A stretch of 64,000 nt of DNA, from NCBI GenBank assembly GCA_035651755.1, contig DASRFA010000057.1:52054-116053 (forward strand), in the 5' to 3' direction. The stretch is from Candidatus Binatia bacterium (GTDB lineage: Bacteria > Desulfobacterota > Binatia > UBA12015). Under the pieces are notes generated by a model. That model worked only from the letters and a program-made list of their open reading frames with translations, ran no database searches and was not told the origin of the DNA. Positions within the stretch are counted from its first letter, which is position 1; each line of letters starts with the position of its first letter. Of this stretch, positions 6,206 to 59,808 are shown in pieces. The position numbers and the translations under genes were made by a program.

Positions 6206-6478
6206 TCAGATGCGGATCAGCGGCAGGAGGCGCGCGAGCGGTACGAACGACTCGTCGGCGGGAGCCGCGAGCGCGAGGGCCGGCGTCGGGACCTGCTCGA
6301 GGAGGCAAAGCGCCGCGTGACGGGCGCGCTCGGCGACGGCATCGGCAACGTCGCCGACGCGCGCGGATCCGATCGTTTCCACGGCGAGATCGAGATCGCT
6401 GGAGACCGCGATGTCGTCGGCCGTGCCGCTGGCGGCAACGAGGTGAATGGTCACGACCATGCGCCCCTCGTGGAGCAA
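6206..6478 (-). CDS. Hypothetical small protein (90 aa) upstream of motA2.
   Basis: A compact ORF with coding-like GC3 and no Arg-rich bias (MVVTIHLVAASGTADDIAVSSDLDLAVETIG...). No family was recognised. Confidence 0.35.
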   Translation of the reverse strand: MLHEGRMVVTIHLVAASGTADDIAVSSDLDLAVETIGSARVGDVADAVAERARHAALCLLEQVPTPALALAAPADESFVPLARLLPLIRI

Positions 6479-7556: not shown

Positions 7557-7609
7557 GGCTCCTCCCCCGTCTCCCGCGTGCACCGGTCGCGATCGTCGCG
7601 CGCCCGGAG

Positions 7610-8398: not shown

Positions 8399-8542
8399 GG
8401 GCCTGGGCGACGGCTGGCAAGCCGGATGCCAGCGCGGCCGACGCAGCTCCGCCGCGCGTGCCCGACGCGCCCGCGACGAGCGGGCACGGACGGTGGGCAA
8501 TGCCTGCCGGGCGGTCGGCAAAGGCGTCCGGGTGGCGGAGCG

Positions 8543-9268: not shown

Positions 9269-9322
9269 GCGCAGCGCGACGCTCGCTTTGCCGGCGTGTC
9301 CGGCCGCTGATATCGCGGTGGG

Positions 9323-38128: not shown

Positions 38129-39045
38129 CTACGAGCCGCCTCGGACCGCGCGAGCCGAGTAGAGGTTGTACTTGTAGCCGTTGAACACGAGTCCATTGAA
38201 GAAGAACACGCTCCACGCATTGCGCCCGTCACCGGCAGTGGTCGACGACCAGAACGGCGCGAGCGATGCTCCGAGGATGGGATCGATGCAAGGACTACCG
38301 GTCCCACACCCCGTGGTGTCGAGGTCAATGATGGTCTGCAGCTCGACGATCGTCGGTAGCCGCCAGTCGCAACGACCCGCAAACCCTCCTGCCATGCTGC
38401 TCCCGTCCGTGCTGGTGCACGCGTTCAGCTTGTTCAGGAAGCTGGAGTAGACGGATCCATTGGGAACCGTCCCATTGATCGTCGCGGTCCAGTCGTACGC
38501 GTTGTTCACGTCGTGCGGATCCGGACAGGGATTAGCAGTGCAGTCGATCTGCGAAGCGGGCGTACCGGTCTTCTGCTCCCACTGGAGGCCCGTTCGATTG
38601 TCGGTCACCGTTCCGTCGCCGTTGTCCGCGAACCGCGGTACGGCTCCCACTTCCTCCGAGACGAACGCCTCGACACCGTAGGAGAGCGCGTCGACCCTGG
38701 GTCCGACGACGCTGGCATCGCCCTGCGGACAGATCGATCCGGTCGCCGCGCACTTCACCTCGGCCAGCAGGAAGGCCTTTTCGAATTTGCTCTGGCATTT
38801 CGCGAGGAGATCTGCCCGCGGCGGCTCCGGTTGCGGATCGAAGGCGCCGAGGACGTGCCTCGCCAAGACACCGGTTTGGCACTTCGCGAGGTTGCCCACT
38901 GCCTTCAGCTTGCTGGCCTGCTCCTTCAGCGGCGGCTCGGGCTGGGGATCGAAGGCCTGCGCGCAGAGTGGCGCGATGAGCATCGCTACAGCCGCAATCG
39001 AACTCCATCGTGCGGCTCGGATGGCTTTTCTCATGGCGGAGTCCT
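38129..39045 (-). CDS. DUF1566 secreted protein, paralog 2.
   Basis: A signal peptide; FADNGDGTVTDNRTGLQWEQK; DWRLPTIVELQTI; FWSSTT; AWSVFFFNGLVFNGYKYNLYSARAVRGG. There is a strong Shine-Dalgarno sequence (AAGGAGGA). Confidence 0.8.
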
Positions 39046-43935: not shown

Positions 43936-44571
43936 TCAGGGGAGGAGTCGGTGCGCGACGACGTACTTGATGGCCTGCGAGTTGTTCTCGAGGCCGAGCT
44001 TCTCGAGCATGCGGGCGCGGTAGGTGCTGACCGTCTTGACGCTCAGGCAGAGCCGCTCGGCGATCTGCGTCACCGTCGCGCCCGACCCGATCAGGCACAG
44101 CACCTCGAACTCGCGATCGGACAGCGCCTCGTGCCGCGCCGCTTTGTCCGCGACGATCGCCGCCCCGAACACGTGATCCGCGATCGAACGCGAGACGTAG
44201 CGCCGGCCCGCAGCGACCGATTCGATGGCCTGGACGATCTCTTCGGCGGCGCTCTGCTTGGTGACGTAGCCGAGCGCGCCGGCGCGCAGTGCACGGAGGC
44301 AATACTCGCGATCGTCGTACATGCTGAACACGACGACCGGCAGGCGCGGGCGCTCGCCCCGGATGAGCTTGAGCGCCTCGATGCCGCTCATGTCGGGCAG
44401 CGAGAGGTCCATGACGACGGCGTCGAGCGGCTGCTCGAGCGCCTTGCGGACGCCTTCGCGCGCGGTCGCGGCCTCCGCCACGACGACCGCGCGCCTCGAC
44501 GCGGTCAGAACGGTTCTGAGCCCGTCGCGTACGACGGCGTGGTCGTCGATCAAGAGGACCCGGAGGCTCAT
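43936..44571 (-). CDS. NarL/FixJ-family (LuxR-type HTH) response regulator, copy A.
   Basis: REC domain (LLIDDHAVVRDGL, the DAVVMDLSLPDMSG Asp pocket) and a LuxR HTH (LSDREFEVLCLIGSGATVTQIAERLCLSVKTVSTYR). Confidence 0.85.
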   Translation of the reverse strand: MSLRVLLIDDHAVVRDGLRTVLTASRRAVVVAEAATAREGVRKALEQPLDAVVMDLSLPDMSGIEALKLIRGERPRLPVVVFSMYDDREYCLRALRAGALGYVTKQSAAEEIVQAIESVAAGRRYVSRSIADHVFGAAIVADKAARHEALSDREFEVLCLIGSGATVTQIAERLCLSVKTVSTYRARMLEKLGLENNSQAIKYVVAHRLLP

Positions 44572-44742: not shown

Positions 44743-45384
44743 TCAGCGAACGAGCGAGTGCTCGACGACGTACTTGATCGCCTGCGAGTTGTTCTCGAGG
44801 CGGAGCTTCTCGAGCAGGCGCGCGCGATACGTGCTGACCGTCTTCACGCTGAGACACAGGCGCTCGGCGATCTGGGTCACCGTGGCCCCGGAGCCGATCA
44901 GGCAGAGCACCTCGAACTCGCGGTCCGAAAGCGCCTCGTGCGGCGCCGCGCCGTCGGCGTTGCCGCCGATCGCCGCTCCGAACAGGTGGTCGGCGATCGA
45001 GGGCGAGACGTAGCGCCGGCCCACCGCGACCGTCTGGATCGCCTGGACGATTTCCTCGGCGGCGCTCTGCTTGGTGACGTAGCCGAGCGCGCCGGCGCGG
45101 AGCGCGCGTAGACACGATTCGCGGTCGGCGTGCATGCTGAAGATGATCACCGGCAGGCGCGGCCGGTGCTCGCGGATCTGCTTCACCGCCTCGATGCCGC
45201 TCATGTCGGGCAGCGAGAGGTCGAGGACGACCGCGTCGAACGGCTGCTCGATCGCCTTGCGAATCCCCTCGCGTGCGGTGGACGCCTCGTCCTCGACCTG
45301 GAACCGCTTGGAGGCGATCAGCACGGTGCGCAGACCGTCACGCACGACGGCGTGATCGTCGATCAACAGGACGCGCAGCTTCAT
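44743..45384 (-). CDS. NarL/FixJ-family response regulator, copy B. It is the tandem paralog of copy A.
   Basis: About 80% identical to copy A at the protein level. The 3' flanks are also similar (ACGAATTCCGAATCTGATGTCGGACTCCGTCCTACCC versus ACGAACTCCGATTTTGTCGTCGGGGTTCGTCCTACGC). The start overlaps the stop of the kinase gene. Confidence 0.85.
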   Translation of the reverse strand: MKLRVLLIDDHAVVRDGLRTVLIASKRFQVEDEASTAREGIRKAIEQPFDAVVLDLSLPDMSGIEAVKQIREHRPRLPVIIFSMHADRESCLRALRAGALGYVTKQSAAEEIVQAIQTVAVGRRYVSPSIADHLFGAAIGGNADGAAPHEALSDREFEVLCLIGSGATVTQIAERLCLSVKTVSTYRARLLEKLRLENNSQAIKYVVEHSLVR

Positions 45385-46964
45385 GTCCAACCTCCGCCCG
45401 CGTGTCGCGGGATCGCGAGCCGCACGATCGTCCCACGCTCGGGAAGCGACCCGACGCGGAGGGTACCGTTGAGGAGCGCCGCGCGCTCGCCCATCCCGCG
45501 CAGGCCGAACGATTCCTTGGCGTCGCCGATGCCGCGGCCGTCGTCCGCGACCGAGAGCTCGACCGAGTCGTCGCCGGTCGACAGCCGCACGACCACCTCG
45601 GTCGCGTGCGCATGGCGCGCGACGTTGGTCAGCGACTCCTGGGCGATCCGGAAGACCGCGGTGACCTCTTCCGGCGACAGCTCCGGCTCGATCTCCGGGA
45701 CGTCGAGCTCGCAGCGAATTCCCGTCCGGCTGACGAACGAGTCGGCCTGCACGCGCAGCGCCGCGAGCAGGCCGAGGTCGTCGAGGATCGGCGGGTGGAG
45801 CCGGTGGATCATCCCGTGGACCGACTTCATCGCCTCCTCGATCTCGCGGACGCAGGTGCGCATCGTTCCGGTTGCGTCGTCGCGCGAGGTGTCGGGGCTC
45901 CAGATCAGGCCGACCAGGCGGAGCTTGATGCCGGTGAGCGCCTGGCCGAGCTCGTCGTGGAGCTCGCGCGCGATGCGCCGGCGCTCTTCCTCGCGCGCCG
46001 CCTGGATGCTGCGGGCGAGCTCGCGCATGCGGGCGGCCGCCGCGAACTCCTTCTCCGCCGTCACGTCCTGGGACAGCCGCGCGACGCGCTTGGTGCGGCC
46101 CTCGACGTCGCGGATCGGAAAGACGTAGTCGTGGATCCAGCGGGTTCCGCCGTCGGGATGAACGAGCCGGTACTCGCAGTCGAAGTCGCCGCGCGCAATG
46201 CCGGCGCGAAAGCGCGCCTCGACCGCGGGTCGGTCGTCTGGGTGGAGCGCATCGAGCCAGGCGTCCGGGCGGTCCTGCAGCTCGCCCCGGTCGCGCGCCC
46301 AAACCGCGTCGTAGCGCGGGCTCACGTACAGGAACGACTCCCCCCAATCGCCCACCTCGTTCAGCCACAGCACGCCATTGATGTGCTCGGCGACCTGCCG
46401 GAGCCGCTCCATGTTCTCGCGAAAGAACATCAGGCTGTGCCACGACTCGCGGCGGTGGCGCTCGTGCTCGAAGGCGATCAGCGCCGAGGTGAAGAGCATC
46501 ACCACCAGGATGGTCGGCAAGAAGACCGCCTTGTCGGCCGAGCCGTAGACCATGCCGGGAATCGCGCCGAACAGCACGATTCCGGAAGCCGCGATGAGCT
46601 GCGCCTTCCGGCCCCACGGCACGAGGCCGGCAACGCTCGTCATGAGCAGCCCGCACAGAATCGCGGCGCTCCAGTCCTCATGGACCAGGAGCGACGAGAC
46701 GGCGATCACGGCCGCCATCGTGATGGCGGCGGCGACCATGGCGCAGATGAGCCGGCGCTGCGAAGAGGTGTCCGTCAGCCGCCACAGCCACACACCCACC
46801 GCGACGAGGACGATCTTGACGGAATAGAGCTGCCAGAGGACGTCCGGATGGATCGCCGGGTCGACCACCGCCGCCAGGCCGAAGAGCACCAGCAGGACGA
46901 GCACCACTCCGATGCGCGCGCGCCGCCGGAGGTCGATCAAGTCCTGCTCTCGGCGACGCCGCAT
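45381..46964 (-). CDS. Sensor histidine kinase (NarX-like, HisKA_3 plus HATPase) with a membrane N-terminus and a PAS-like region.
   Basis: TM segments; the PAS-like region LNEVGDWGESFLYVSPRYDAVW...CEYRLVHPDGGTRWIHD; the H-box ARELHDELGQALTGIKL; HATPase motifs NVARHAHATEV...DDGRGIG...GLRGMGERA. The start is taken at MRRRREQ. Confidence 0.75.
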   Translation of the reverse strand: MRRRREQDLIDLRRRARIGVVLVLLVLFGLAAVVDPAIHPDVLWQLYSVKIVLVAVGVWLWRLTDTSSQRRLICAMVAAAITMAAVIAVSSLLVHEDWSAAILCGLLMTSVAGLVPWGRKAQLIAASGIVLFGAIPGMVYGSADKAVFLPTILVVMLFTSALIAFEHERHRRESWHSLMFFRENMERLRQVAEHINGVLWLNEVGDWGESFLYVSPRYDAVWARDRGELQDRPDAWLDALHPDDRPAVEARFRAGIARGDFDCEYRLVHPDGGTRWIHDYVFPIRDVEGRTKRVARLSQDVTAEKEFAAAARMRELARSIQAAREEERRRIARELHDELGQALTGIKLRLVGLIWSPDTSRDDATGTMRTCVREIEEAMKSVHGMIHRLHPPILDDLGLLAALRVQADSFVSRTGIRCELDVPEIEPELSPEEVTAVFRIAQESLTNVARHAHATEVVVRLSTGDDSVELSVADDGRGIGDAKESFGLRGMGERAALLNGTLRVGSLPERGTIVRLAIPRHAGGGWT

Positions 46965-47224
46965 GACGGCGTCGCCGACGCCGCCGGGTGTCCGGAAGTC
47001 CGCGCGGATCGGCAACGTATCGGCTTCGCCCCACAGGGCGGCGAGACTGGACTTTCCGCGAGACCAAAGAGCCGCTGGAGACATCGAGGATGGCCCGGAC
47101 ACCATCGTGCCAGCGGCTCCTCCGTGGTCAAGAGGAAAAGACGTCTGGGTAGTGCCTCAGTTTGATTCCGCGCGCCCCGCGCGCCGGTCGCACGACCGTT
47201 GAGCGGCCGTGCTATCCTCCGTCC

Positions 47225-47452
47225 ATGCCACGAGGCCCGAAGGGCGAGCGCCGACCCGCCGACGTGATCGGGAACGCGGTCCATGTCATGCGGATCGCGA
47301 CCGGCGAGGTCGAGGACGTGAAGAACGATCCCGCGAAGGAGCACATGCGGCGGGGCGGGCTCGCTGGCGGGAAAGCGCGCGCGCAGAAGCTCTCGAAGGC
47401 CAAGCGAACGGCTATTGCCAAGAAAGCCGCGCGGGCGCGCTGGGCCCGCTAG
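47225..47452 (+). CDS. Small basic protein (75 aa) carrying the GGKARA...LS...R..IA.KAA.ARW motif. It is a passenger of the IS.
   Basis: MPRGPKGERRP...RRGGLAGGKARAQKLSKAKRTAIAKKAARARWAR. The same motif is at the N-terminus of the neighbouring convergent gene. Confidence 0.5.
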   Translation: MPRGPKGERRPADVIGNAVHVMRIATGEVEDVKNDPAKEHMRRGGLAGGKARAQKLSKAKRTAIAKKAARARWAR

Positions 47453-48501
47453 AGTCCCCGCCCGTCGTCCTCGTCCTTCTGGTAGTCGAACGACAACTGG
47501 TAATTTCGCGGCGGATGGATGCGATCCAGCTTGTCCATGAAGTCGTGCCAGGACTGGCTCAGCTTCATCATCGTCACGACCGACCCGAGGTGCTCACGCA
47601 GCTTGGGGTATCCAACGTTCGAGGTCAGCCGCTGAAACAGCTTGTCCTTGTGGCGCCCCGATTCGAGCTTCGGGGTCACTCGCTTCAGCTCCTCTAAGAC
47701 GCCCGGGGCGAGCCGCTTGTACACGATGTTGTTCGTCAGGACGCCGAAGTACTGCGGGCGCCTTACGCTGCCGGTCGGGTAGGTCAGGCCGCGGAGGCGG
47801 AACATCTCCTCGTAGTAGTCGCCGGGGAAGGTTCGCACGTAGGGTTGCAACTCCTTGGCGATGAACGCTTCGAGGATCTTCGCCAGGGCGTCTCGCGCCC
47901 GGTCCCGCTGGTAGCCGGTAGCCTCGTCGACAAGCGCGATGATCCCGACGGTGGCGAAACCGTGCTGGAGGATGGCACAGCGCTCGGCAAGCCCTTCGAG
48001 CCGCTTACCCAGCATTCCGAGCCGACCGGCCTCAATGAGAACGGCACAAATGTCGGGAAGAATCGTGGCCTCGTAGCCATCGGCCGGGTTGCCGCCGTGC
48101 GGCGGGATGAACCGAATCGGAGAATTCGCGCGCGCGATTAAGTCCTTGATATCTATGCCTTTTCCGGCGAGTTTGGCCATCAAATCGGCGATTTTGCGCG
48201 CGCCGCCTTTTCGACCACCCTCAGACAGCCCGATGCCGCTTTGCAGGCCACGTTGCGATAGAACGCGCCGGCCGTCCGCAAGCACGTAGCAGCCAATCTC
48301 GATGTCCCCGATGCGTAGCGGGTCGTCCGGCGATCCGTGCGTGGCAGTTTGGATCGGCCCCGCCCATCGCGAGGTAGCCGCCTTACGGGCAATCGCCGTC
48401 CGCTCCTCTGGGGAAAGCGCCTGAGCCCGCGCATAACCGCCGACCGCCTTGCTCGCGTCCTTGCCCGCCTCATCAAACCCGTCAGTCGCCGCGTCATCCA
48501 T
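47449..48501 (-). CDS. P63C-domain-like phage-associated protein (350 aa). It is a passenger of the IS.
   Basis: The N-terminal motif VGGYARAQALSPEERTAIARKAATSRWAG, then the conserved region GDIEIGCYVLADGRRVLSQRGLQSGIGL...IRFIPPHGGNPADGYEATILPDICAVLIEAGR... A GGAGGA Shine-Dalgarno sequence precedes it. The P63C assignment is from memory of the family and should be confirmed. Confidence 0.65.
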   Translation of the reverse strand: MDDAATDGFDEAGKDASKAVGGYARAQALSPEERTAIARKAATSRWAGPIQTATHGSPDDPLRIGDIEIGCYVLADGRRVLSQRGLQSGIGLSEGGRKGGARKIADLMAKLAGKGIDIKDLIARANSPIRFIPPHGGNPADGYEATILPDICAVLIEAGRLGMLGKRLEGLAERCAILQHGFATVGIIALVDEATGYQRDRARDALAKILEAFIAKELQPYVRTFPGDYYEEMFRLRGLTYPTGSVRRPQYFGVLTNNIVYKRLAPGVLEELKRVTPKLESGRHKDKLFQRLTSNVGYPKLREHLGSVVTMMKLSQSWHDFMDKLDRIHPPRNYQLSFDYQKDEDDGRGL

Positions 48502-48574
48502 GCCTGCATCCTCCGAGACCCGTTGCTTGCATTTCTGGTCGTGGAATGCAAGCAGCGGCGGCATCGATGCGTGC

Positions 48575-48585
48575 AAATTGCGGGC
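48575..48585. repeat. Homopolymeric G11 tract in the divergent promoter region between the P63C-like gene and the transposase gene.
   Basis: GCGGGCGGGGGGGGGGGCCGGGCGG, about 27-37 nt upstream of the transposase ATG. Confidence 0.8.
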
Positions 48586-48611
48586 GGGGGGGGGGGCCGG
48601 GCGGAAATAGG

Positions 48612-49562
48612 ATGAACAAAATCCTTGACACTCAAGCAGCAGTTTCATATTATTCCTGCGTGAACAAGCTGCCCGCCGGGAAGCGCGCTCAGATCCTCTC
48701 GATGCTGGTCGAGGGGTCCTCCATGCGCTCAATCTCCCGCGTGGTCGACGTCTCGATCAACACCGTCGACCGCTACCTGATCCTGGCCGGCGAGGCGTGC
48801 GCTGCGTTCCACGACCGCACCGTGCGGAACGTCCGCGCCCAGCGCGTCCAGTGCGACGAGATTTGGTCCTTCTGCGGGATGAAGGAGAAGGCCGCGAAGG
48901 CGAAGGGCAGCGAGCGCCCGGAGGGCGTCGGCGACGTCTGGACATGGACCGCGATCGACGCCGACCACAAGCTCATCATCGCGTGGCTCGTCGGCGGGCG
49001 CGATGCCGGATACGCCTACGAGTTCATGCTCGACGTCGCGGGTCGGCTCGCGAACCGCGTCCAGCTCACGACGGACGGGCACGGTGCGTACCTCGCGACG
49101 GTCCCCGACGCCTTCGGCTTCGACGTCGACTTCGCGCAACTCGTGAAGGTCTACGGCCCCGATCCCCGCGAGGACCAGCGCCGCTACTCACCGGCTCAGT
49201 GCCTCGGAGCCGAGAAGCACCGGGTGATCGGCCATCCCGACCCCGAGCACATCAGCACGAGCTACGTCGAGCGGAGCAACCTGACGCTCAGGATGGCGAA
49301 TCGACGCTTCACGAGGCTCACCAACGCCTTCTCGAAGAAGCTGGCTAACCACTGCCACATGATCGCGCTCTACACGGTCTGGTACAACTTCGTGAAGATG
49401 CACAAGGCGGTTCGGATGACGCCCGCCCTCGCCGCGAACGTGACCGACCGGCTCTGGTCCATGGACGATCTGGTCGCCCTGGTGGACGAGCACGACGCCG
49501 CACGGCCGCGTCAGAAGCCGGGACGGAAGCCGAAGGCGGCGGCGGCCGGCGAATCAAACTGA
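48612..49562 (+). CDS. IS1-family transposase (fused InsA-like HTH plus InsB-like DDE).
   Basis: N-terminal HTH (ILSMLVEGSSMRSISRVVDVSINTVDRY). InsB-like motifs DEIWSFCG, WTWTAIDADHKLIIAW, LTTDGHGAY, YVERSNLTLRMANRRFTRLTNAFSKKLANHCHMIALYTVWYNFVKMH. Confidence 0.8.
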   Translation: MNKILDTQAAVSYYSCVNKLPAGKRAQILSMLVEGSSMRSISRVVDVSINTVDRYLILAGEACAAFHDRTVRNVRAQRVQCDEIWSFCGMKEKAAKAKGSERPEGVGDVWTWTAIDADHKLIIAWLVGGRDAGYAYEFMLDVAGRLANRVQLTTDGHGAYLATVPDAFGFDVDFAQLVKVYGPDPREDQRRYSPAQCLGAEKHRVIGHPDPEHISTSYVERSNLTLRMANRRFTRLTNAFSKKLANHCHMIALYTVWYNFVKMHKAVRMTPALAANVTDRLWSMDDLVALVDEHDAARPRQKPGRKPKAAAAGESN

Positions 49563-49846
49563 GGCACTACCGACGTCTGCTATAGGCATCGATAGCGCCA
49601 TGCCAGCCGCCACGTCGTCTGTGGCCGCCGCACGTCGTCATCCAAAAGAATAGTGCAGCCCGCGAGCTCGGCCCACCGGAGCGAGCACGTAGGAGACGAC
49701 CGGACGGCGGCCGGGCGATCTGTCCTACACGCGAATCCGCGTCCGTCCGACATACACGGCCCCGGAACCCGACTACGAAGCGCGCATCGATCCGGTCGCT
49801 GCTCCGCCTCGGCGGCTCGGCAGGCCGGCTCCACGAGGAGACCGAC

Positions 49847-50896
49847 ATGGAGACGCTGAAAATCGTTGGGTTGGCACAGGTCCTCGCACTCGTCCTCGCC
49901 GCGCAGGGCCGCGCTGCGCCGAGCGGCGCCCAGCTCTGCGAGGAGCAGAAGCTCCGCGCGGAGGCGAAGTACGCCGGCTGCCGACTCGTCGCCGATGCCG
50001 GCTATGCGGCGCGCGGCGACGCCGTCAAGCGCGACATCGCCTACATCAAGTGCTCGCAGAAGCTCGCTGCCGCCTACGGGAAGGTCGAGGAGAAGTATCC
50101 CGGCGTCTGCCCGACGACCCACGATCAACACGCGGTCGAGCGGTTCCTCCAGTCGTGCTCCGAGAAGGCGCGCGACTGGACGGGCGCGCGGCTCGCGTCG
50201 CCGCTCGTGTTCGAGCGCCTCGCGGCGAGCGGTCAGACCACCTGCTGGACGGGCGGCAACTCGTCGTCCTCACCGCTCCCGACCGTGTGCGCCGGCACCG
50301 GTCAGGACGGAGAGCTCCGGAAGGGCGCCGCTCTCGCCTTCGTCGACAACGGCGACGGCACGATCACCGACGAGAACACCGGTCTCCAGTGGGAGAAGAA
50401 GTCCGACGACGACAGCCTGCACGACAAGGACAACTCCTACCCCTGGATCGGCACCTGCAGCGACCATCAGTTCGGGGAGGGTTGGTGCCAGCGCGACGGC
50501 GATTGCGTGGTCTTCGGCGGCACCTGCACCGGGACGACGATCTTCGAGTGGATCGACGAGCTGAACGCGGCGCATTTCGCGGGCCACGACGACTGGCGCA
50601 TCCCGAACCTACGCGAGCTGGCGAGTCTCTCCGACTACTCCACCGGCTTCCCCGATCCGGCGCTCACGGCGGAGTTCAACACCGACTGCGGCCCGCACTC
50701 GTACGGCAACCCGGGCTGCACCGTGACGACGTGCAGCTGCACCGGCATCGACCTCTACTGGTCCTCGACCACGCTCGCGATCGCGAGCGGCGGATACGCG
50801 GAGAACGCCTGGGGCCTCTACTACGGGTACGGCTACCACTACTACGACGACAAGAGCGCCTCGCACCACGTCCGAGCGGTGCGCGGAGGGGCGTGA
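49847..50896 (+). CDS. DUF1566 secreted protein, paralog 3, with an extra Cys-rich insert.
   Basis: A signal peptide; FVDNGDGTITDENTGLQWEKK; DWRIPNLRELASL; LYWSSTT; AWGLYYGYGYHYYDDKSASHHVRAVRGG. Confidence 0.8.
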   Translation: METLKIVGLAQVLALVLAAQGRAAPSGAQLCEEQKLRAEAKYAGCRLVADAGYAARGDAVKRDIAYIKCSQKLAAAYGKVEEKYPGVCPTTHDQHAVERFLQSCSEKARDWTGARLASPLVFERLAASGQTTCWTGGNSSSSPLPTVCAGTGQDGELRKGAALAFVDNGDGTITDENTGLQWEKKSDDDSLHDKDNSYPWIGTCSDHQFGEGWCQRDGDCVVFGGTCTGTTIFEWIDELNAAHFAGHDDWRIPNLRELASLSDYSTGFPDPALTAEFNTDCGPHSYGNPGCTVTTCSCTGIDLYWSSTTLAIASGGYAENAWGLYYGYGYHYYDDKSASHHVRAVRGGA

Positions 50897-50904
50897 GGCG
50901 AGCC

Positions 50905-53859
50905 ATGAAGACCCGGACGACTCTCTTCGCCCTGACGTCGCTCGCAGCGATCGTCCTTCTCTCTCCCGCCGCGCGCGCCAGCCACTGTGGCGGCGAGGGC
51001 GAGCGCGCCTGCTGCGTCGACGAGCGCGTCCCGTCGTGCCGCGACGGGCGGGTCGAGGTGCCCGGCTGCAGCGGCGACTGCGGGTGCAGCGACGGCGTCT
51101 TCAACTCGCTCGGCACCTGTCGGACGATCACCTCCTGCGGCGGCGCCGGTGAGCGGGCCTGCTGCTGGGGCGTCGCCGAGTACGCCGACGGCGGCGTGGC
51201 GTGCGAGCCGGGAAAGATCGAGGTCCCGGGCTGCAGCGGCAACTGCCTGTGCGGCGGGGCAGGGCTCGGCTTCGACTCGCTCGGCACGTGCGTCCAGCCG
51301 AAGCCGTGCGGCGGCGAGGGACAGCGCGCCTGCTGCATCGGCGCGCTCGAGTTCGCGAGCGGTGGATTGAGCTGCGACTCCGGCCTGTGGGAGGTCCCGG
51401 GCTGCAGCGGCGACTGCACGTGCGGTGGAGCCGCGGTCGGCGGAGTCGAGTCGCTCGGCGCGTGCGCCCGGATGGAGCGCATCGACGAGCCCACGACCGG
51501 CTGGACGGCGCCGTCGTCCGGGCCCGAGTGTCCGCTTCGCGGCTACGCCGACATCCACCTGCACCTCTTCGGCCAGATGGGCCACGGCGGCGCAGTGATC
51601 TCGGGCGCCGCATGGGACGAGGACGGCGTCAACGCCGCCTTGGCACAGGACTACGGCACGGACCGGCCGCTGGTCCTACGCAACGGGATGGACGCGCCGC
51701 CGCCGATCTTGTGCCCGCTCTACATGGGTCTCGATTGCGGCAGCCACCTCTTCCACGGCGACCACCTGCTCATCGACGACCCGATCGGCTCGGACTTCGG
51801 AACGCGGGACGGCTCGCACTCGCCGCTCGGCGCCCCGATCTTCAACGGCTGGCCGCAGTGGACGTCGACGACGCACCAGCAGGCCTACTACCGGTGGCTC
51901 GAGCGCGCCTGGCGCGGCGGGCTCAGGCTCGTGACGATGCTCGCCGTGACGAACGAGTCGCTCTGCCGCTCGCAGAAGCGCCTCGCCGGCGTCGATTGCT
52001 ACGATTCGATGGCGGCCATCGACGATCAGCTCGACGCGGCCTACTCGCTGCAGACCGCGATCGACGACGAAGCGGGCGGCGAGGGCCAAGGCTGGTTCCG
52101 CATCGTGAAGAGCTCCGACGAGGCGCGCCAGGCGATCTTGCACGGCAAGCTCGCGGTCGTCCTCGGAATCGAGGTCGACAACCTGTTCAACTGCCGCTTC
52201 CCCGAGTCGCAATGCATGAAGAACGGCGGCGCGATCGAGTCGTGCAGCTTCGCGGACGACACCGGCGAGTGCACCGCCGACTCGGTGCGCGCGGCGGTCG
52301 ACAAGTACTACGAGAAGGGCGTGCGCCACGTCTTCCCGGTACACGACTTCGACAACGCGTTCGGCGGGGCGGCAACCTGGCAGGACGCGATCGACGTCGG
52401 CAATCGCGCGGTCGAGGGCCACTGGTGGAAGACCGAGGACTGCTCGGCCGACGGGTACGGCTTCGAGCTCGGCAGCTTGACGCAGATCGTCCTGAATCTC
52501 TTTAGCTTCGACGATCTGGACTCGCCGCCGGGTCACCCGGGAACGGCGAGCTGCAACTCCTTCGGCCTGCTGCCGCTGGGCAAGGTGCTGATCGCGGCGC
52601 TCATGGACAAGGGCATGATCATCGACGTCGACCACATGTCGCGGAAGGCGCTGTCGGACACGCTCGATCTGACCGAGGCGCGCGGCTACCCGGTGGTCGC
52701 GAGCCACGTGCAGTTCTTCGACCTGAATGACCCGGACATCCGCCACGAGCGCATGCGCACGCCCGATCAGCTCGCGCGCATCCGCGACTCGGGCGGCATG
52801 ATCGGCGCGATGCTGAAGGACGACGTTCAGGACACCGAAAAGAAGGGCGAGAAGAAGACGATCGCCTACGGCGACAAGGTCGACGACACCTGCCGGCACT
52901 CGTCGCGCACGTGGGCGCAGGCCTACGAGTACGCGGTCGACACGATGGGCGGCCCGGTCGCGATGGGGAGCGACTTCAACGGCATCGCCGGGCACGTCGG
53001 GCCGCGTTTCGGAAGCCAAGCGTGCGGCGGCAGCGACCGCGAGCGCAGCGCGCAGGAGCGCGACAGCGAGCGGCTCGCCTACCCGTTCTCGGTCGACGCC
53101 TTCGGAACCTTCGACGAGCAGGTCACCGGGGAGAAGCAGTTCGACTTCAACGTCGACGGCCTCGCGCACGTCGGCCTCCTGCCCGACCTCGTCGCGGACC
53201 TGAAGCAGGTCGGCCTCGACGACGACGATCTCGATCCGCTCTTCAACTCGGCGTCGGCCTACGTCGACACCTGGGCGCGCGCCGAGGGGACGTACGTGCC
53301 GCGCGACTGCCTCGACCTCGACGGCGACGGCGTGCCCAACCTGAACGACAACTGCCCGTTCGACGCGAACCCCGAACAGGCCGACCTCGACGGGGATGGC
53401 GCCGGCGACGTGTGCGACGCCGAGGACGCGCAGCTCGTGCTGCGCGAGGCGACCGTCTGGCGCAACGCGAGCAAGCGCGGGCGCCTGAGCTTCAAGGGCA
53501 CGCTGCCGACGGGCGTCTACGGCCCGGCAGACGTGCTCGACGTGTCGGCCGGCCTTCACCTGACGATCCTGGACGGCCGGAACGTCACGCAGACGGGCGA
53601 CCTGCTCGCGGGCGAATGCGTCGAGAAGGCCGGTCACGCGCGCTGCCGGAACGCGGCGGGCACCGTGCAGGCGACGTTCTCCCCGCGGCGCGACGGCGGG
53701 CCCGGCTACGACTTCCAGGTCCGGCTGCGCAAGCTCGACATCGCGCGCGAGCAGTCGGGCCCGCTCGCCGTCACGATCAAGCACGGCGACATCGATCGGG
53801 TTGGCACGAACGCGAGCTGCCGGGTGTGGGCCCGCAAGATCGCCTGCGAGGAGCGTTGA
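50905..53859 (+). CDS. Large secreted multidomain protein: four Cys-rich repeats, an amidohydrolase-superfamily (membrane dipeptidase M19-like) domain, thrombospondin type-3 calcium-binding repeats, and a C-terminal beta domain.
   Basis: A signal peptide; four repeats of C-G-G-x-G-E/Q-R-A-C-C...EVPGCSGDC.C..G....SLG.C; the metal motif ADIHLHLFGQ (HxH) and IIDVDHMSRKALSDTLDLTEARGYPVVASHVQF; DLDGDGVPNLNDNCPFDANPEQADLDGDGAGDVCD. Confidence 0.75.
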   Translation: MKTRTTLFALTSLAAIVLLSPAARASHCGGEGERACCVDERVPSCRDGRVEVPGCSGDCGCSDGVFNSLGTCRTITSCGGAGERACCWGVAEYADGGVACEPGKIEVPGCSGNCLCGGAGLGFDSLGTCVQPKPCGGEGQRACCIGALEFASGGLSCDSGLWEVPGCSGDCTCGGAAVGGVESLGACARMERIDEPTTGWTAPSSGPECPLRGYADIHLHLFGQMGHGGAVISGAAWDEDGVNAALAQDYGTDRPLVLRNGMDAPPPILCPLYMGLDCGSHLFHGDHLLIDDPIGSDFGTRDGSHSPLGAPIFNGWPQWTSTTHQQAYYRWLERAWRGGLRLVTMLAVTNESLCRSQKRLAGVDCYDSMAAIDDQLDAAYSLQTAIDDEAGGEGQGWFRIVKSSDEARQAILHGKLAVVLGIEVDNLFNCRFPESQCMKNGGAIESCSFADDTGECTADSVRAAVDKYYEKGVRHVFPVHDFDNAFGGAATWQDAIDVGNRAVEGHWWKTEDCSADGYGFELGSLTQIVLNLFSFDDLDSPPGHPGTASCNSFGLLPLGKVLIAALMDKGMIIDVDHMSRKALSDTLDLTEARGYPVVASHVQFFDLNDPDIRHERMRTPDQLARIRDSGGMIGAMLKDDVQDTEKKGEKKTIAYGDKVDDTCRHSSRTWAQAYEYAVDTMGGPVAMGSDFNGIAGHVGPRFGSQACGGSDRERSAQERDSERLAYPFSVDAFGTFDEQVTGEKQFDFNVDGLAHVGLLPDLVADLKQVGLDDDDLDPLFNSASAYVDTWARAEGTYVPRDCLDLDGDGVPNLNDNCPFDANPEQADLDGDGAGDVCDAEDAQLVLREATVWRNASKRGRLSFKGTLPTGVYGPADVLDVSAGLHLTILDGRNVTQTGDLLAGECVEKAGHARCRNAAGTVQATFSPRRDGGPGYDFQVRLRKLDIAREQSGPLAVTIKHGDIDRVGTNASCRVWARKIACEER

Positions 53860-53919
53860 CCGGGAGTTCTGTTCCCGGCGTCGATGGCGACGCGGGTGCC
53901 CTGCTCACCGTGTCGTGGT

Positions 53920-53929
53920 TCGGGGGGGG
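53920..53929. repeat. Homopolymeric G10 tract about 60 nt downstream of the large secreted-protein gene.
   Basis: GTGGTTCGGGGGGGGGGCGCTCGCC. Confidence 0.75.
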
Positions 53930-54192
53930 GGCGCTCGCCCAGCCGGACAGCCCGCTGTACCTGTCCAAGAATGGCGGCGCCGGCGTTCCCGTACCGGCAT
54001 GCCTGAAGGTGAAGGGAATCTACCTGAACACGCCGTGCTACACGGCGCGCAAGATCAACAGGCGACGGGTCAGATCACCGACACGTTGGCCTTGCTCTCG
54101 GGTGACCCGACTGTCGGACGCCAGTAGGCGCTGCCCGGTCCGGTCGGTCGCCACGTCGTAGGCGTCGAGCGCCTCGTCGTGCGGGAGGCACG

Positions 54193-54230
54193 AGACGGTG
54201 GCGCACCAACGCGAGTTGGTGCGCCACCGT
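54193..54230. promoter_or_regulatory. Perfect 14-bp-arm palindrome upstream of the P450 pseudogene (candidate operator or hairpin).
   Basis: CGGTGGCGCACCAA-cgcgag-TTGGTGCGCCACCG. Confidence 0.4.
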
Positions 54231-54265
54231 GCCTCCAATCACCACTCGTCTCGCGGAGCGAACCA

Positions 54266-54960
54266 ATGGTCGAACCGAAGATCGCCGCTACGACGGAAAC
54301 CAACCCGCGCGAATGGAAGCGCTTGATGCTCGACGCCGCGTCGCGAGGGCCGACGGTCATCGACGAAGCCACCGGGGGCAGTCCACATGCTGCGCCGTCG
54401 CGACATCGAGCGCCTTCTGAACGAGCCGCGGCTGAACGGCGTCGGGCTGTCGCTCTTCGACGCGATGGGGATCACCCGCGGTCCTTTGCGCGATTGGTAC
54501 GGGTCGCTGATGTTCACCAACGACGGCGCCAAGCACGACCGGCTGCGCCGTCTGGTCAGCAAGGCGTTCACGCCGCGCGCGGCAGCACGCCTCAGGCCGA
54601 CCGCGGCAGCACACGTCGCCGAGCGGCTGGCGGTGCTGCGCCGAGCGGGCGGCGGCGACCTCGTGCCCGCCCTCGCCCACGTGCCGATGGACGTGATGTG
54701 CGCGCTGATCGGCGTCCCCGCCGCGGCGGGCGAACCTGCTGGTCGGCGGTCACGATACCACCGCGAGCCAGATCGGCTGCACCCTCGTGACCCTGCTCGC
54801 CAGGCCGGACGAGCTCGCGGAGCTTCGCTCCGATCCCGCCTTGCTCCCCTTGCTCGTCAGCGAGACGATCCGCTTCGAGCCCGGCATCCCGTTCGCACCG
54901 CGCACCGTCGCGCTCACCGCCGATCCCGCGAGCATCGAGTGGTGTCAAGTACTTGGCCGC
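54266..54960 (+). pseudogene. Cytochrome P450 remnant with at least two frameshifts. It lacks the C-terminal heme-binding loop.
   Basis: Frame a MVEPKIAATTETNPREWKRLMLDAASRGPTVIDEATGG; frame b ...LFDAMGITRG...MFTNDGAKHDRLRRLVSKAFTPRAAARLRPTAAAHVAERL; frame c NLLVGGHDTTASQIGCTLVTLLARPDELAELRSDPALLPLLVSETIRFEP. No FxxGxxxCxG follows. Confidence 0.55.
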
Positions 54961-55063
54961 AGTCCGGCCAGGCTGCCCGTGACGCTTCGAGGAAGAAGGC
55001 GCGGCCGCAGCTCGAGCGCGGCACGTCCTTGGCGACGACGACCCCGGGGCGGGTGGACCGAAG

Positions 55064-56017
55064 CTACGCGCTGTCGTGTTCGCCGAGCCATTGGAGGACC
55101 TCGTGCACGCTCCCGGAAGCCATGGCGATGCTGGTGTCTGCTGCGCCGTAGTAGAGACGAATCGTGTCGCCGTCCTCGCTGAGCGTGTAGCCGCAAGGGA
55201 AGGTCACGTTGGCGACGTCTCCTTGACACTCGTAAGGAGCTTCGGGTCCGAAGATCCAGCAGTCGCCTCGCCGAAGGCAGTGCTCGGGCCGCTCGAGGTC
55301 CAGAAGCGCTACGCCCAGGCGGTACAGACATCCCGCGGCCGTGTGCCGGACGCCGTGATAGATCATCAGCCAACCGGCCGGCGTCTCGATCAGCGGCGGC
55401 GAGAGACCAACCTTGTTCGCATCCCACCAGGCGCCCTTGCGTGCCGGCAGGACGAGCTTGTGGTTTCCCCAGTTGCGGAGGTCCGGTGAGTAGGAGATCC
55501 AGATGTGCGCACCGGAGTCGGTCATCGGACGGTGCAGGAGCGCGAAGCTTCCCTCGACCCGCCGCGGAAGGACGGCAGCGTCCTTGTCGTCGGGCTGCAT
55601 CACCAAGCCGACGCGCTCGAACTGCCGGAAGTCCGTGGTCAGAGCCAGTGCGACGGCCGGGCCGCCGCGACCGAACGCGGTGTACGCGACGGCGTACTGT
55701 CCGAGCTCCTCGACGAACGTGATGCGCGGATCCTCGATCCCCCATAGCTCGTCCGCGTGATGCTCGGGGTCGGGTCGGAGGGTCGGCTCCGGGTCGATCA
55801 CCCAACCGTTGACGCCGTTCACCGAACGCGCCGCGCACAAGTGCGAGTGTCCTCGGCGATCCTCGACGCGGCAGAGCAGAAGCGTCGTGCCGTCCGCGAG
55901 GCGCGTTGCGCCGGGGTTGAAAACGGTGTGTGCCGGATAGGGCCAATCTGCCGCCGTCAGGATGGGATTGGCGGGCTCGCGGCGGAAGAGGGTCTCGTAC
56001 GGACGCGGCGAAGTCAT
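55064..56017 (-). CDS. Glycoside hydrolase family 130 (beta-mannoside phosphorylase-like) protein.
   Basis: ANPILTAADWPY...VFNPGATRLADGTTLLLCRVEDRRG...WGIEDPRITFVEELGQYAVAYTAF...SPPLIETPAGWLMIYHGV. The start is taken at MTSPRPYE. Confidence 0.8.
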   Translation of the reverse strand: MTSPRPYETLFRREPANPILTAADWPYPAHTVFNPGATRLADGTTLLLCRVEDRRGHSHLCAARSVNGVNGWVIDPEPTLRPDPEHHADELWGIEDPRITFVEELGQYAVAYTAFGRGGPAVALALTTDFRQFERVGLVMQPDDKDAAVLPRRVEGSFALLHRPMTDSGAHIWISYSPDLRNWGNHKLVLPARKGAWWDANKVGLSPPLIETPAGWLMIYHGVRHTAAGCLYRLGVALLDLERPEHCLRRGDCWIFGPEAPYECQGDVANVTFPCGYTLSEDGDTIRLYYGAADTSIAMASGSVHEVLQWLGEHDSA

Positions 56018-58266
56018 GCGCCGGCCCCGTGCGCGCTCGGCTCGCCGAGGCCGTGTCGAGCGGCCGAGCGCATCTCCAAGAGCGCGAGCATGAACGACAG
56101 CGTCGACTCTGCGCCCTGGTTTCGGTTGACGCGATCGGCGTGGAGCCCGTCGCGACAACCGCCGGTCGACGCGTCGTAGAGCGGAGTCTGGAGCTGGTTC
56201 TGACCGAGGAACCAGCGAAAGGCGCGGCGCGCATGCTCCGTCCAGACGGCGTCTCCGCTCGTGCGCCGAGCCGCGAGACACGCAGCGACGACGGCGTACG
56301 CTTCGAGCGGCTGCTGATCGAATGCCGCCTTGTCCCCTGCTCGCCGATAGAACCCGTTCGAGCCGATCGGTGCGAACTCGCCGACCTCCGATCGCTGAAT
56401 CGACACGAGCCATTCGAGCGAGCGCAGCCCGGCGAGCTTCATCTCCTCGTCTTCCATCCGCGAGCCCGAGACGAGTAGCGCTTGCGACAGGCGCGGATTG
56501 TCATAGGTGACCCGGTCTTCGAACCACGGCCAATCGGGCCTGCTCACCGTGCGGAACAGCTCGAGGAGGCGTTCGGCGAGACGCGTCCGAACGAGCTGCA
56601 CCGTCCTGTCGCCCTGGAAGGCGTGGAGGTACTCGTCGATTCCCAGCAGCGACGAGGCCCAGGCACGCGGGCTCGTGAAGCTCGACACCGCCGGCAGGGC
56701 GGCGTGGAACAGCTCGCCGGCTAGGGTCTGCCTGCCAGGATCCGCACCCCGTCCGACGACCGTTCCGAGCGCCCACACCGCGCGTCCATGGCTGTCCTCG
56801 GAGCCGACTTCCTCGGTCCAGGATCGTTCATACGACATGAAGTTTCTGAATCGCCCGCACTTCGAGTTGTAGGCGTGGCGCACGAAGGCGAGGTAGCGTG
56901 ATGCCAGAGCACGGACCGAACGAACATCTTCCGTCTCGCTGTCGTCGATCAACGCCATCGCCAGCAGCGCGCGTGCGTTGTCGTCCAGGCAGTACCCGTC
57001 CTCGTAGCGCGGCACGTCGAAGGCGGCATGCTGCAGCACCCCGGTCTCGTCGGTGAGCAGCCGGAGGTGCTCGAGGTTGAGATCGGGAAGCTCGAGAGGA
57101 CGCGCGGCGAGCGTGCGTGCCTCGAAGCTCGTCCGCATCCGCGCCGCGTGCTCGACGCGCGCCCGCTCGAGAGAGTGATGGTAGCTGCGCGCCACTGCCG
57201 GCCACAGCATCTCGTCGCCGTGTGCGGCCGCCCGACGACGAAGCGCGAGATGCCGGCCCTGGTCGTCAAGTAAACCGATGATCTCTCGCGCGATGGCCTG
57301 CGGATCTCGCCACGGCACGAGGATGCCGCGACCGTCGGCGAGCAGCTCGCGCGCATACGAGTACGGCGTCGAGACGACGGCCTTGCCCGACCCGACCGCG
57401 TAGGCGAGGGTGCCCGAGGTGATCTGCTCGGGGTTGAGGTACGGCGTCACGTAAACGTCGGCTGCCGCGAGGAACTCGGTGAGCTCCCCCTGGCTCACGA
57501 AGCGGTCGTGGAAGATCATGTTGCCCGCCACGCCCAGCCGCTCGGCCTGACTCTCGAGCGCGAGCCGATACGTCTCGCCCTGGCGCTCCTTTACGTGCGG
57601 GTGGGTGGCGCCGAGCACGATGTAGACCGTGTCGGGGTGCCGCGCGAGGATGTCCGGCATGGCCGCGATCGCGTATTCGATCCCTTTGTCGGGAGACAGC
57701 AGCCCGAACGTCAGGATCACCGACTTGCCCTCGACCCCGAGCAGGCTCTTGTTGCCCCCGTCGAACGGAATGGACGGGATGCCGTGCGGGATCAGGTCGA
57801 TCTTGTGATCGGGAACGGCGTAGATCTCGGAGAGGCGGCGAGCCCCATGGTGGCTCATGACCACCACTCGCTCCGATAGCCCGGCGATCTCTCCGAGCAC
57901 CTCGCGCTGGAGGGAGTTGGGCTCGCCCAGCACCGTGTGCAGCGTCGAGACGATCGGCATTCGCAGGTCTCGCAGCAACGCGACGAGATGGCTGCCGGAC
58001 TTTCCGCCGAAGATGCCGTACTCGTGCTGCACGCACACGACGTCGATCGCGTTGAGGTTCAAGAAGTCTGCCGCGCGCCGATACGACGTGAGATCGCTTG
58101 CGGCGATCTCGAACCGGACGCTCGAAGGGTACGCGTAGCGCTTTCCCGGATCGTTCATCGCGAGCACGAGGCAATCGATCTCGGGAAACGATCGTGTGAG
58201 CGCCGCGGCGAGATCGGTCGTGAACGTCGCGATACCGCATTGACGAGGCAGGTGATTGCCGATCAT
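56014..58266 (-). CDS. Glycosyltransferase family 4 (N-terminal GT-B) fused to a large C-terminal helical domain. The start is taken at MIGNHLP, and the ORF is open to 58440.
   Basis: GIATFTTDLAAAL...; ADVYVTPYLNPEQITSGTLAYAVGSGKAVVSTPYSYARELL (EX7E-like). The C-terminal 350 aa are alpha-helical (possibly toroid-like). The stop overlaps the GH130 start by 4 nt. Confidence 0.65.
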   Translation of the reverse strand: MIGNHLPRQCGIATFTTDLAAALTRSFPEIDCLVLAMNDPGKRYAYPSSVRFEIAASDLTSYRRAADFLNLNAIDVVCVQHEYGIFGGKSGSHLVALLRDLRMPIVSTLHTVLGEPNSLQREVLGEIAGLSERVVVMSHHGARRLSEIYAVPDHKIDLIPHGIPSIPFDGGNKSLLGVEGKSVILTFGLLSPDKGIEYAIAAMPDILARHPDTVYIVLGATHPHVKERQGETYRLALESQAERLGVAGNMIFHDRFVSQGELTEFLAAADVYVTPYLNPEQITSGTLAYAVGSGKAVVSTPYSYARELLADGRGILVPWRDPQAIAREIIGLLDDQGRHLALRRRAAAHGDEMLWPAVARSYHHSLERARVEHAARMRTSFEARTLAARPLELPDLNLEHLRLLTDETGVLQHAAFDVPRYEDGYCLDDNARALLAMALIDDSETEDVRSVRALASRYLAFVRHAYNSKCGRFRNFMSYERSWTEEVGSEDSHGRAVWALGTVVGRGADPGRQTLAGELFHAALPAVSSFTSPRAWASSLLGIDEYLHAFQGDRTVQLVRTRLAERLLELFRTVSRPDWPWFEDRVTYDNPRLSQALLVSGSRMEDEEMKLAGLRSLEWLVSIQRSEVGEFAPIGSNGFYRRAGDKAAFDQQPLEAYAVVAACLAARRTSGDAVWTEHARRAFRWFLGQNQLQTPLYDASTGGCRDGLHADRVNRNQGAESTLSFMLALLEMRSAARHGLGEPSAHGAGA

Positions 58267-59808
58267 GCCGAGCGCACGAAGGGAGCCGCTGACATTCTCG
58301 GAGCTGGTGGTGTCGACGGATCGGAGTCGCGAAGCCGCCGGTCGGCTTCTCATCGGATCTCCGCCGATGGTGCTCTCCGAAATGCCGGCGCTCATCGAAT
58401 CTGCCTCGACGACGGCGGTCGCCAGCCGGCGTCGTAGCACGGGCGACAGGTCGGAAAGACGGCCCGGACCTGTCCGCGATAGCCGATGAGCCCGCGTGTC
58501 TCTCCTCCCGGACCGTCGTTCGGGGAGCTCGGGAGCGAGACTTCCGTCGAGGTCGAGATCGACTTGCCGCAGCTCGCGCAGTCGACGCGCAGTGTGAGGT
58601 TGCCTTCGGTGCGAAGCGCGCTGCCTCTAGCGGCCACGAGAGGCGACGACCGTCGCGCGAATATGTGCCTTGACGAATCCTGCGTGGCGGACGACGGCGA
58701 AGTGATCGGTCCTGGTCCCGGACATGGACGGTCTCCTTTCGGAGTCCGCGCCGAGCACACGTGGGTAGGACGAGGCCCCTACACGACTCGCGCTGCGGGG
58801 CTCGCAACGAACTCGAAGGTGAGCATATCCCGCGCAATCGATCCGCGCAACCGAGCGCTGACGGCGTCAAGATACGCTCTCCAGCGAGACGAGTCCCGCT
58901 CGCCGTCGCGAGAATCTCGAACGGACGATCGACGGTCGCACGCCGCCCCGAGCATTCGACGCGCGCCGACGGAATCGGCCTTCCCGAGCTTCCGGCGGCG
59001 GCTTTCATCCAGCACGCGTCCGTCGTGCCGCTCGCCTAGGAGGCCGAAGCGAGCTCCCAAGCGTCCTTGTCGAGAGCGGCGGTCGCCTACTTGACGGGAG
59101 ATCGAAGCCGAACGCCGACGTTCGTAGACGTTCGCGCACGACGCCGAGCTCCGCGGACCGCTAGGCATTGCTTTACGTGACCATTCGAGGTAACACTCAT
59201 CTGAGTTCGACTTGCAGCCTGCTCGCGCGGCGATTCCGTATGCGCGCGCTTCGGCGCGGACTCCGATAGGAGATCGCGCGTGACCGGGACTCGCTGCGAG
59301 ACGTTTTTTCATTCGGGAGCTACTGCCGGCGGCAGCACGCTGAACGCTTGATGCCGATTCCGCGCCGCGAGCTCGTATTGCGAGCCGCGGCAATCCGACC
59401 GAAGCTCGCCATGCCGTTCGCGCGCCGACCCGTCCGAGTCGACGGCCGCACGCTCTACGGGACGGACCCGCGCTGCGCGGCCGTCTGCACCACCTGCGCG
59501 AAAGGCCGGGCGGCTGCAGTCGGCGCTCGACCTCGCTCGCGGACCGCCCGCTCGCGCTCGGATTCGAGGATGCCAGGGCGCGATCGCGGAGCACGGACCC
59601 AGAAGGAAGGTATGAGGATGTGGTTCACACTTCTCCCGGGCGGACCCCCGAGCTCGCTCGCGGTTCCGTTCTCGTTCGACGGTCTCGATCCGAAGGTTCT
59701 CCTGTCGGCGCTCCTATTCTCAGTCTGTGCCGTTCATGCGTTCCTTCATGGGCTACATTGGGGCGCTCGACGCGGTGCAGCGGCATCCGTCGTCGCACCG
59801 GCACGGTC

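Follow-up and report, generated by a model that had tools for sequence, protein, structure and literature searches.

The locus described here raises the question of what a large secreted protein might do that joins cysteine-rich repeats to a metal-hydrolase barrel, a thrombospondin type-3 (TSP3) unit and a further C-terminal domain. It lies in a stretch of 64,000 nucleotides from Candidatus Binatia bacterium (assembly GCA_035651755.1, contig DASRFA010000057.1, positions 52,054 to 116,053), hereafter the window, and its gene occupies positions 50905-53859 of the forward strand as a complete open reading frame (ORF) of 984 residues plus stop. We propose, with confidence somewhat above even, that the product is a catalytically competent extracellular amidohydrolase with a binuclear metal site, probably acting on something other than a simple dipeptide. 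This reading draws on sequence comparison and on a predicted structure. Within the M19 amidohydrolases, the protein belongs to a separate subfamily that is widespread and uncharacterised.

A secreted protein built around an M19-type barrel

The reading frame begins with an ATG at 50905, with a GAGG 5-8 nt 5' of it. The source metagenome contigs ENA ERZ27279688 k141_668038 (125 kb) and Logan SRR5581483 carry the identical sequence, and independent gene calls on both return a single gene of 984 residues with a 349-residue gene before it. Because these calls agree and because homology to a related protein (P0001, 73% identity) spans 98% of the length, we treat the ORF as one gene. A split into two genes was ruled out by the same continuous homology and gene calls. 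A 1269-residue frame opening with a GTG at 50050 was likewise rejected, as it overlaps the DUF1566 gene upstream and arises artefactually from the high G+C content (~70%) of the window. A promoter and terminator scan of 49500-54450 gave nothing exceeding shuffled expectation.

Residues 1-25 (MKTRTTLFALTSLAAIVLLSPAARA; 50905-50979, forward strand) read as a putative signal peptide that is probably cleaved after an AxA motif, and the AlphaFold pLDDT (predicted local distance difference test) stays below 50 over residues 1-21. The protein contains 44 cysteines, an even number. It is predicted to be Sec-exported, extracellular and stabilized by about 22 disulfides.

The catalytic module is an enlarged (β/α)8 amidohydrolase domain of the M19 lineage at residues ~195-797 (51487-53295, forward strand), as assigned from Pfam, Foldseek and a 90-sequence alignment. 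Pfam Peptidase_M19 (PF01244) matches the protein with 75.2 bits (cutoff 26, E 6.8e-21), and this match is restricted to residues 553-778, corresponding to profile positions 157-307 in the C-terminal half of the barrel. The AlphaFold model, built on the 90-sequence alignment, has a pLDDT of 85 and a predicted template modeling score of 0.82. Most of residues 25-800 exceed a pLDDT of 90, whereas the final 180 residues are poorly predicted. Searching the PDB with this model using Foldseek, we found that the best 20 matches are all M19 enzymes (E ~1e-10, target TM 0.5-0.68). These include DPEP1 (1itq), GliJ (5lwz), Sco3058 (3id7), PvdM (3b40), 2i5g and 3fdg, with which the protein shares only 12-17% identity, and no other amidohydrolase family appeared among the PDB matches at E <0.01. 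At the sequence level, the best PDB match by profile alignment is PvdM (3b40, E 3.4e-7).

Two relatives, P0032 and P0106, stop directly after the catalytic module, which therefore has its C-terminal boundary near residue 797. The module thus spans ~600 residues and does not have the size of a compact M19 domain (~350-400 residues). The insertions fall at residues 221-320 (with H284, H287 and W316), 425-470, 500-550 and 640-745. The best reading of the model is that the barrel descends from the renal-dipeptidase (M19) lineage and was enlarged from ~350 to ~600 residues by insertions. An earlier note, made from the DNA letters, had claimed a single 984-residue protein with a TIM-barrel metal hydrolase core. 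Both claims are upheld by the data above: domain models and structure prediction identify the central region as an M19-type barrel, with no non-hydrolase fold assigned, and the motifs named in that note lie at residues 216-222 (DIHLHLF), 574-579 (DVDHMS) and 599-604 (ASHVQF).

The 90 aligned relatives are only 45-60% identical overall. Nevertheless, D216, H218, H220, H284, H287, H324, Q325, E423, H480, D576, H577, H601, E615, R616, D690 and H697 are invariant among them. We derived residue correspondences from profile alignments to the solved M19 enzymes GliJ and PvdM. By these, H577 (DVDHMS) is the counterpart of DPEP1 H198 and H601 (ASHVQF) that of DPEP1 H219, while H480 (FPVHDFDN) corresponds to the His of the THN motif. 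R616 (RHERMRT) takes the place of the carboxylate-binding Arg, the HARNVT Arg of GliJ, and DGLAHVGLLPD at residues 751-761 that of the M19 C-terminal motif. D690 (GSDFNG) is the putative general base and, like R616, occurs in every aligned sequence. E423 closes a strand (GIEVDN), as the bridging Glu of M19 does, and in the AlphaFold model H218 and H220 are located at the end of strand 1.

The metal ligands of human DPEP1 are H20, D22, E125, H198 and H219 (PMC9305348). Four of these five are kept here (H218, E423, H577 and H601), while the Asp position is taken by an invariant His (H220). The resulting HxH in place of HxD is found in every homolog inspected, including a divergent clade from Labilithrix/Polyangiaceae (L074/L075). 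In Sco3058, the Asp of HxD reportedly also touches the substrate. The metal site is probably still binuclear, although the defining M19 motif is altered.

That catalysis can be lost from an M19 fold is shown by PvdM, a non-catalytic member in which four of the five metal ligands are gone (PMC9305348). The family is moreover rich in adhesion-type modules (HYR, PKD, dockerin, TSP3), and the protein might accordingly be pictured as a surface adhesin that merely keeps the M19 fold and acts through its TSP3, Cys-rich and β domains. We consider this highly improbable, as none of the 90 sequences departs from the rest at any of the five ligand positions, the catalytic Asp or the Arg, which points to selection on catalysis. 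Such strict ligand conservation, compared with the loss in PvdM, argues for a working enzyme.

A working enzyme could be an ordinary extracellular dipeptidase of broad specificity that scavenges nutrients by cleaving free dipeptides, as characterized bacterial M19 enzymes do, perhaps L-Xaa-D-Xaa released in peptidoglycan turnover, with the extra domains serving only as an anchor. The Pfam M19 match above threshold, PDB fold matches that are all dipeptidases, the invariant catalytic set with its R616 equivalent and the automatic annotation "membrane dipeptidase" are what such an enzyme would show. We find this unlikely, though to be taken seriously, as several features do not fit. HxH replaces HxD throughout, identity to the solved M19 enzymes is very low, and the barrel is larger by ~250 residues, with insertions that hold the invariant H284, H287, W316 and P317. 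In addition, the Cys repeat is not found on classical M19 enzymes, and the neighborhood survey revealed no peptide transporter or peptidase consistently nearby.

In the reading we prefer, that of a competent amidohydrolase with a different specificity, two metal ions would activate a bridging hydroxide. The amide bond that this would cleave would lie beside a free carboxylate, with which R616 would pair as in M19. The substrate is probably larger, N-blocked, or associated with a surface or lipid instead of being a plain free dipeptide. A specificity unlike that for free dipeptides is suggested by the HxH motif, by the ~250 residues of conserved insertions and by the other proteins that carry the Cys repeat.

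The family to which the protein belongs is large. A database search returned 872 metagenomic and genomic matches, spread over many phyla from soils and the sea; most of the matches are 700-1700 residues long and ~50% identical over ~78-80% of the query. Most share a core of Cys repeats and the ~600-residue enlarged M19-like barrel, to which HYR, PKD, dockerin, Big or TSP3 domains are variably added. Scanning GTDB representative genomes yielded 78 loci that, by record title, fall into about nine phylum-level lineages: Binatia, Myxococcota, Gammaproteobacteria, Acidobacteriota, Planctomycetota, Anaerolineae, Gemmatimonadota, Rokubacteria and a Spirochaetaceae metagenome-assembled genome (MAG). 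Cultured gammaproteobacterial carriers are Pseudoalteromonas spp., Marinobacter caseinilyticus, Microbulbifer marinus and Paraglaciecola. The nearest ortholog from a genome belongs to a Candidatus Binatia MAG (L001) and is 72% identical over residues 23-981. Automatic names given to the matches are "membrane dipeptidase" and "microsomal dipeptidase-like". The former rests on half a Pfam match and is probably misleading for the large secreted relatives, because their size, metal-ligand motif and accessory repeat differ from those of every characterized M19 enzyme.

The 8-Cys repeat and its possible bearing on the substrate

Three Cys-rich repeats with eight cysteines each precede the barrel on the forward strand. 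Repeat 1 (C28-C72, 50986-51120) was delimited from DNA repeat families D2-D5, protein alignment and a repeat hidden Markov model (HMM), repeat 2 (C78-C129, 51136-51291) from DNA repeats, protein alignment and the same HMM, and repeat 3 (C135-C187, 51307-51465) from DNA repeats and protein alignment. The direct DNA repeats that encode them are spaced 150 and 171 nt apart. The earlier note had described four repeats of 44 residues; the repeats are indeed present, but there are three, of 50-57 residues. Four are found in the close ortholog P0002.

The repeat follows the consensus xCGGxGQRACC-x(6-12)-C-xxGLxEVPGCSGDCxCGG-x(5-10)-SxGTC. Using a local HMM, we detected it in 119 of 121 collected family members, in 1-12 copies with a mode of 3. 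The final copy adjoins the barrel through a conserved linker, IxEPxTGW, in the 90-sequence alignment. Variants that lack C5 also lack C6 (the PQxNxGxC form), and variants that lack C3 also lack C7 (the RACT...DCxG form). This paired loss points to disulfides C5-C6 and C3-C7.

None of the Pfam and NCBIfam models matches the repeat, even in proteins with 6-8 copies. A single copy (repeat 3) was modeled by AlphaFold with a pLDDT of 89, and a Foldseek search of this model against the PDB gave nothing significant. The top fold matches are the N-terminal domain of IGFBP and knottin-type toxins, which are similar in size and cysteine density; at E 2 or worse and a match probability of 0.14 or lower, these do not demonstrate a relationship.

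When 1.84 billion cluster representatives were searched exhaustively with a profile, the repeat turned up in only 373 of them at E<=1e-3. The M19-like barrel is present in 64 of the best 150 carriers and absent from the other 86. A Pfam scan of the non-barrel carriers took in 61 proteins and found neutral ceramidase in 5, GDSL lipase in 4 and esterases of the DUF676/PGAP1/palmitoyl-thioesterase type in 3, as well as AbfB in 3, HYR_4C in 4, PAN in 2 and several lectin or adhesion domains. The repeat thus behaves as a recurrent mobile domain: it occurs in 1-16 copies, at the N- or C-terminus, alone or on other hydrolases. Judged by sequence, it serves secreted proteins as a movable accessory, most conspicuously lipid amide and ester hydrolases; from this company comes the one hint at the substrate, an indirect one. 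The repeat could be proposed to the curated databases as a new domain family.

Its arrangement varies further among the carriers. In the divergent HxH clade of M19-like proteins from Labilithrix/Polyangiaceae (L074 at 5248-9228, L075 at 5266-9369, P0160 and P0202), 5-6 repeats stand at the C-terminus, not the N-terminus, and the N-terminus is formed by a different domain of ~230 residues. The association of enzyme and repeat has therefore survived domain rearrangement. In five proteins (P0124, P0136, P0141, P0166 and P0177), 9-16 tandem copies comprise just profile positions 1-28 of the repeat, its first half (CGGxGQRACC...C..GL), which suggests a shorter variant of the module. Three Geobacteraceae loci (L066-L068) encode secreted proteins made of 6-8 repeats and a short coiled coil. 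In L070 and L078 (Rubrivivax/Burkholderiales) and in L077, 2-3 repeats are combined with a C-terminal domain that is conserved, rich in Gly and ends in GVSATHAWKLW; for this domain of the Rubrivivax-type carrier (L070), both Pfam and the PDB were without a match.

How the accessory parts would serve the enzyme can be pictured as follows. The three N-terminal repeats may form a rigid stalk or a targeting module that is common to other secreted hydrolases. The TSP3 unit and the C-terminal β domain would be lineage-specific additions, probably for attachment.

A bolder form of this idea is that the protein represents a new class of extracellular amidohydrolase acting on a lipid-linked or surface amide, with the 8-Cys repeat targeting secreted hydrolases to a shared type of substrate. 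The repeat would then send this enzyme, ceramidases, GDSL lipases and esterases alike to the membrane or cell surface, and candidate substrates would be lipopeptides, N-acyl amino acids and sphingolipid-like molecules. We regard this as speculative and rather improbable.

It is less probable still that the protein is a secreted degrader of antibiotics or signals (a carbapenem, another β-lactam, a lipopeptide or an acyl-amino-acid signal) used in microbial competition. DPEP1 hydrolyzes carbapenems and leukotriene D4, the protein is predicted to be extracellular, and its repeat also occurs on secreted ceramidases and lipases. These arguments work wholly by analogy, however, and a resistance-gene or biosynthetic-cluster context was found in 0 of the 78 loci.

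Several points weigh against our preferred reading of a competent amidohydrolase that acts on something other than a simple dipeptide. Used as a profile against the PDB, the N-terminal half of the barrel gave zero matches. Because that half has no PDB sequence match, its residue equivalences rely on fold and strand position, and the correspondence of HxH to HxD in particular is inferred from fold alignment and the position on the strand instead of a residue-level alignment. Lipid-type hydrolase domains occur in just ~12 of the 61 scanned repeat carriers without the M19 barrel, with lectin or adhesion domains on others, and the link to a lipid-type substrate through a shared accessory repeat would be guilt by association. 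Finally, clustering the ORFs of the 78 loci revealed no family-wide partner, and a conserved neighbor that might hint at a pathway is thus missing.

C-terminal modules and genomic neighborhood

Directly after the barrel, residues 803-841 (53311-53427, forward strand) form a TSP3 unit with two DLDGDG motifs 23 residues apart, identified by Pfam TSP_3 and as DNA repeat D6. The Pfam match (PF02412) scores 27.2 bits (cutoff 25, E 3.2e-6), and the segment aligns to thrombospondin-2 (E 7e-14) and to COMP. Judged by sequence, it shares the DxDxDG calcium-binding motifs and the Cys pattern of their T3 repeats. Unlike thrombospondin, where seven or more T3 repeats form a wire, the protein has a single unit, and only scattered members of the family have a TSP3 unit following the barrel.

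The remaining residues 842-984 (53428-53856, forward strand), with 4 Cys, make up a β-rich domain that AlphaFold predicts with a pLDDT of 50-80, its β-rich part covering residues ~845-960 at low confidence. No Pfam or NCBIfam model matches it. It is present only in P0022, P0001 and P0002, weakly in P0058, and in the L001 ortholog. A local phmmer search finds the domain in P0001, P0002 and P0022 with E 1e-38 to 1e-58. A large-database word-indexed search with residues 842-984 returned nothing, which is a sensitivity artefact, since phmmer detects the domain in these three proteins; word-indexed protein searches are unreliable as negatives for short domains.

The putatively calcium-binding TSP3 region and the C-terminal β domain had both been anticipated in the earlier note; Pfam and the thrombospondin-2 and COMP alignments confirm the first, and the second appears in the low-confidence prediction. 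That note had also called the protein novel, its domain combination not being recognized as a described architecture. Among the papers searched, we found no account of this combination, and neither the Cys repeat nor the C-terminal domain has a model, which supports the claim in part; the core itself, however, is common in environmental bacteria. By sequence, the core is widespread, but only a small clade has the full architecture with TSP3 and β domain.

Upstream, at 49847-50896 on the forward strand, lies a gene for a secreted Lcl_C/DUF1566 protein of 349 residues with a signal peptide. It matches PF07603 with 87.2 bits (cutoff 34.9, E 1.2e-24). Just 8 nt separate the end of this gene from the start codon of the amidohydrolase gene, and the two are therefore probably co-transcribed here. 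The short distance on the same strand, the signal peptides of both proteins and the joint presence of both genes on both source contigs would suit a dedicated pair of a lectin-like targeting protein and an enzyme. A tblastn search of the 78 loci with the DUF1566 protein, however, yielded only weak similarity at two loci, ~5 kb from the enzyme gene, so that in the other loci it is never adjacent. In the two closest orthologs, its position is taken by an FG-GAP repeat protein. Furthermore, the DUF1566 gene directly follows an insertion sequence (IS), which suggests a recent local rearrangement. A dedicated pair is thus largely refuted by non-conservation, and we give it very little credence. DUF1566 adjacency is specific to this genome; the neighboring gene and the IS noted before are confirmed, the gene by its Pfam match and the IS by an IS1-like transposase, whereas the idea that orthologs keep this neighbor did not hold.

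The IS spans 47148-49571 and sits between a conserved kinase gene and the DUF1566 gene. It is bounded by inverted repeats of 33 nt (47148-47180 and 49539-49571, 85% complementary) and carries a P63C-domain gene (47449-48732, reverse strand) and the transposase (~48612-49562, forward strand). Further upstream, all on the reverse strand, are two tandem paralogous response regulators of the NarL/LuxR type (43936-44571 and 44743-~45400) and a PAS/HisKA_3 kinase (45381-47105). The kinase (53% identity) and one regulator (67%) are syntenic with L001, where they lie upstream of the ortholog.

A DsbA-like thioredoxin gene (Thioredoxin_4/DSBA, E ~1e-32) is located ~1-2 kb downstream of the enzyme gene in seven loci, mostly from Acidobacteriota (L012, L014, L029, L050 and three others). 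This fits a protein that would require ~22 disulfides. The DsbA-like gene, the kinase and regulator shared with L001 and the FG-GAP protein of the closest orthologs are the only shared neighbor patterns, all at the level of lineages. In the cultured Gammaproteobacteria, the neighbor genes are unrelated to one another.

A G10 tract at 53922-53931 (forward strand), 63 nt downstream of the stop codon, is present as had been noted. Its role as a boundary or phase-variation site is unsupported: it is intergenic, and the sole other long G tract, a G11 at 48586-48596, lies within the IS just 5' of the transposase start. Beyond it follow a 254-residue ORF without a Pfam match (54387-55151, forward strand), a GH130 gene (β-1,4-mannooligosaccharide phosphorylase family; 55064-56017, reverse strand) and a large glycosyltransferase gene with GT4/GT1 domains (56014-58440, reverse strand). 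Elsewhere in the window, the segment 32000-40000 has a G+C of 0.61-0.635 compared with ~0.70 in the remainder and may be a horizontally acquired island. It holds the other two DUF1566/Lcl_C paralogs (36263-36955, forward strand, and 38132-38647, reverse strand; tblastn E ~1e-18).

Relation to characterized M19 proteins

These results do not overturn the known picture of M19 enzymes, and a mechanism beyond standard M19 chemistry is not demonstrated. The subfamily and its uncurated repeat make extracellular amide hydrolysis by environmental bacteria concretely testable, and cultured carriers exist.

With the M19 enzymes (MEROPS M19, PF01244, COG2355; DPEP1, Sco3058, GliJ) the protein shares the (β/α)8 barrel, with a Foldseek target TM of up to 0.68. 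As far as can be told from the alignments, the resemblance extends further: the binuclear site is bridged by a Glu, two His ligands follow strands 5 and 6, and the catalytic Asp is kept, as are the His of THN type, the Arg that binds the carboxylate and DGL..PD near the C-terminus. M19 enzymes are ~350-400 residues long and have HxD at strand 1, whereas the family described here has a ~600-residue module with several insertions and HxH. Unlike classical M19 enzymes, its members are fused to 8-Cys repeats (119 of 121) and secreted, with ~22 disulfides predicted for the protein studied. The non-catalytic M19 folds PvdM and DPEP3 are likewise periplasmic or extracellular proteins. Whereas just one of the five metal ligands remains in PvdM (PMC9305348), the present family keeps the ligand positions invariant.

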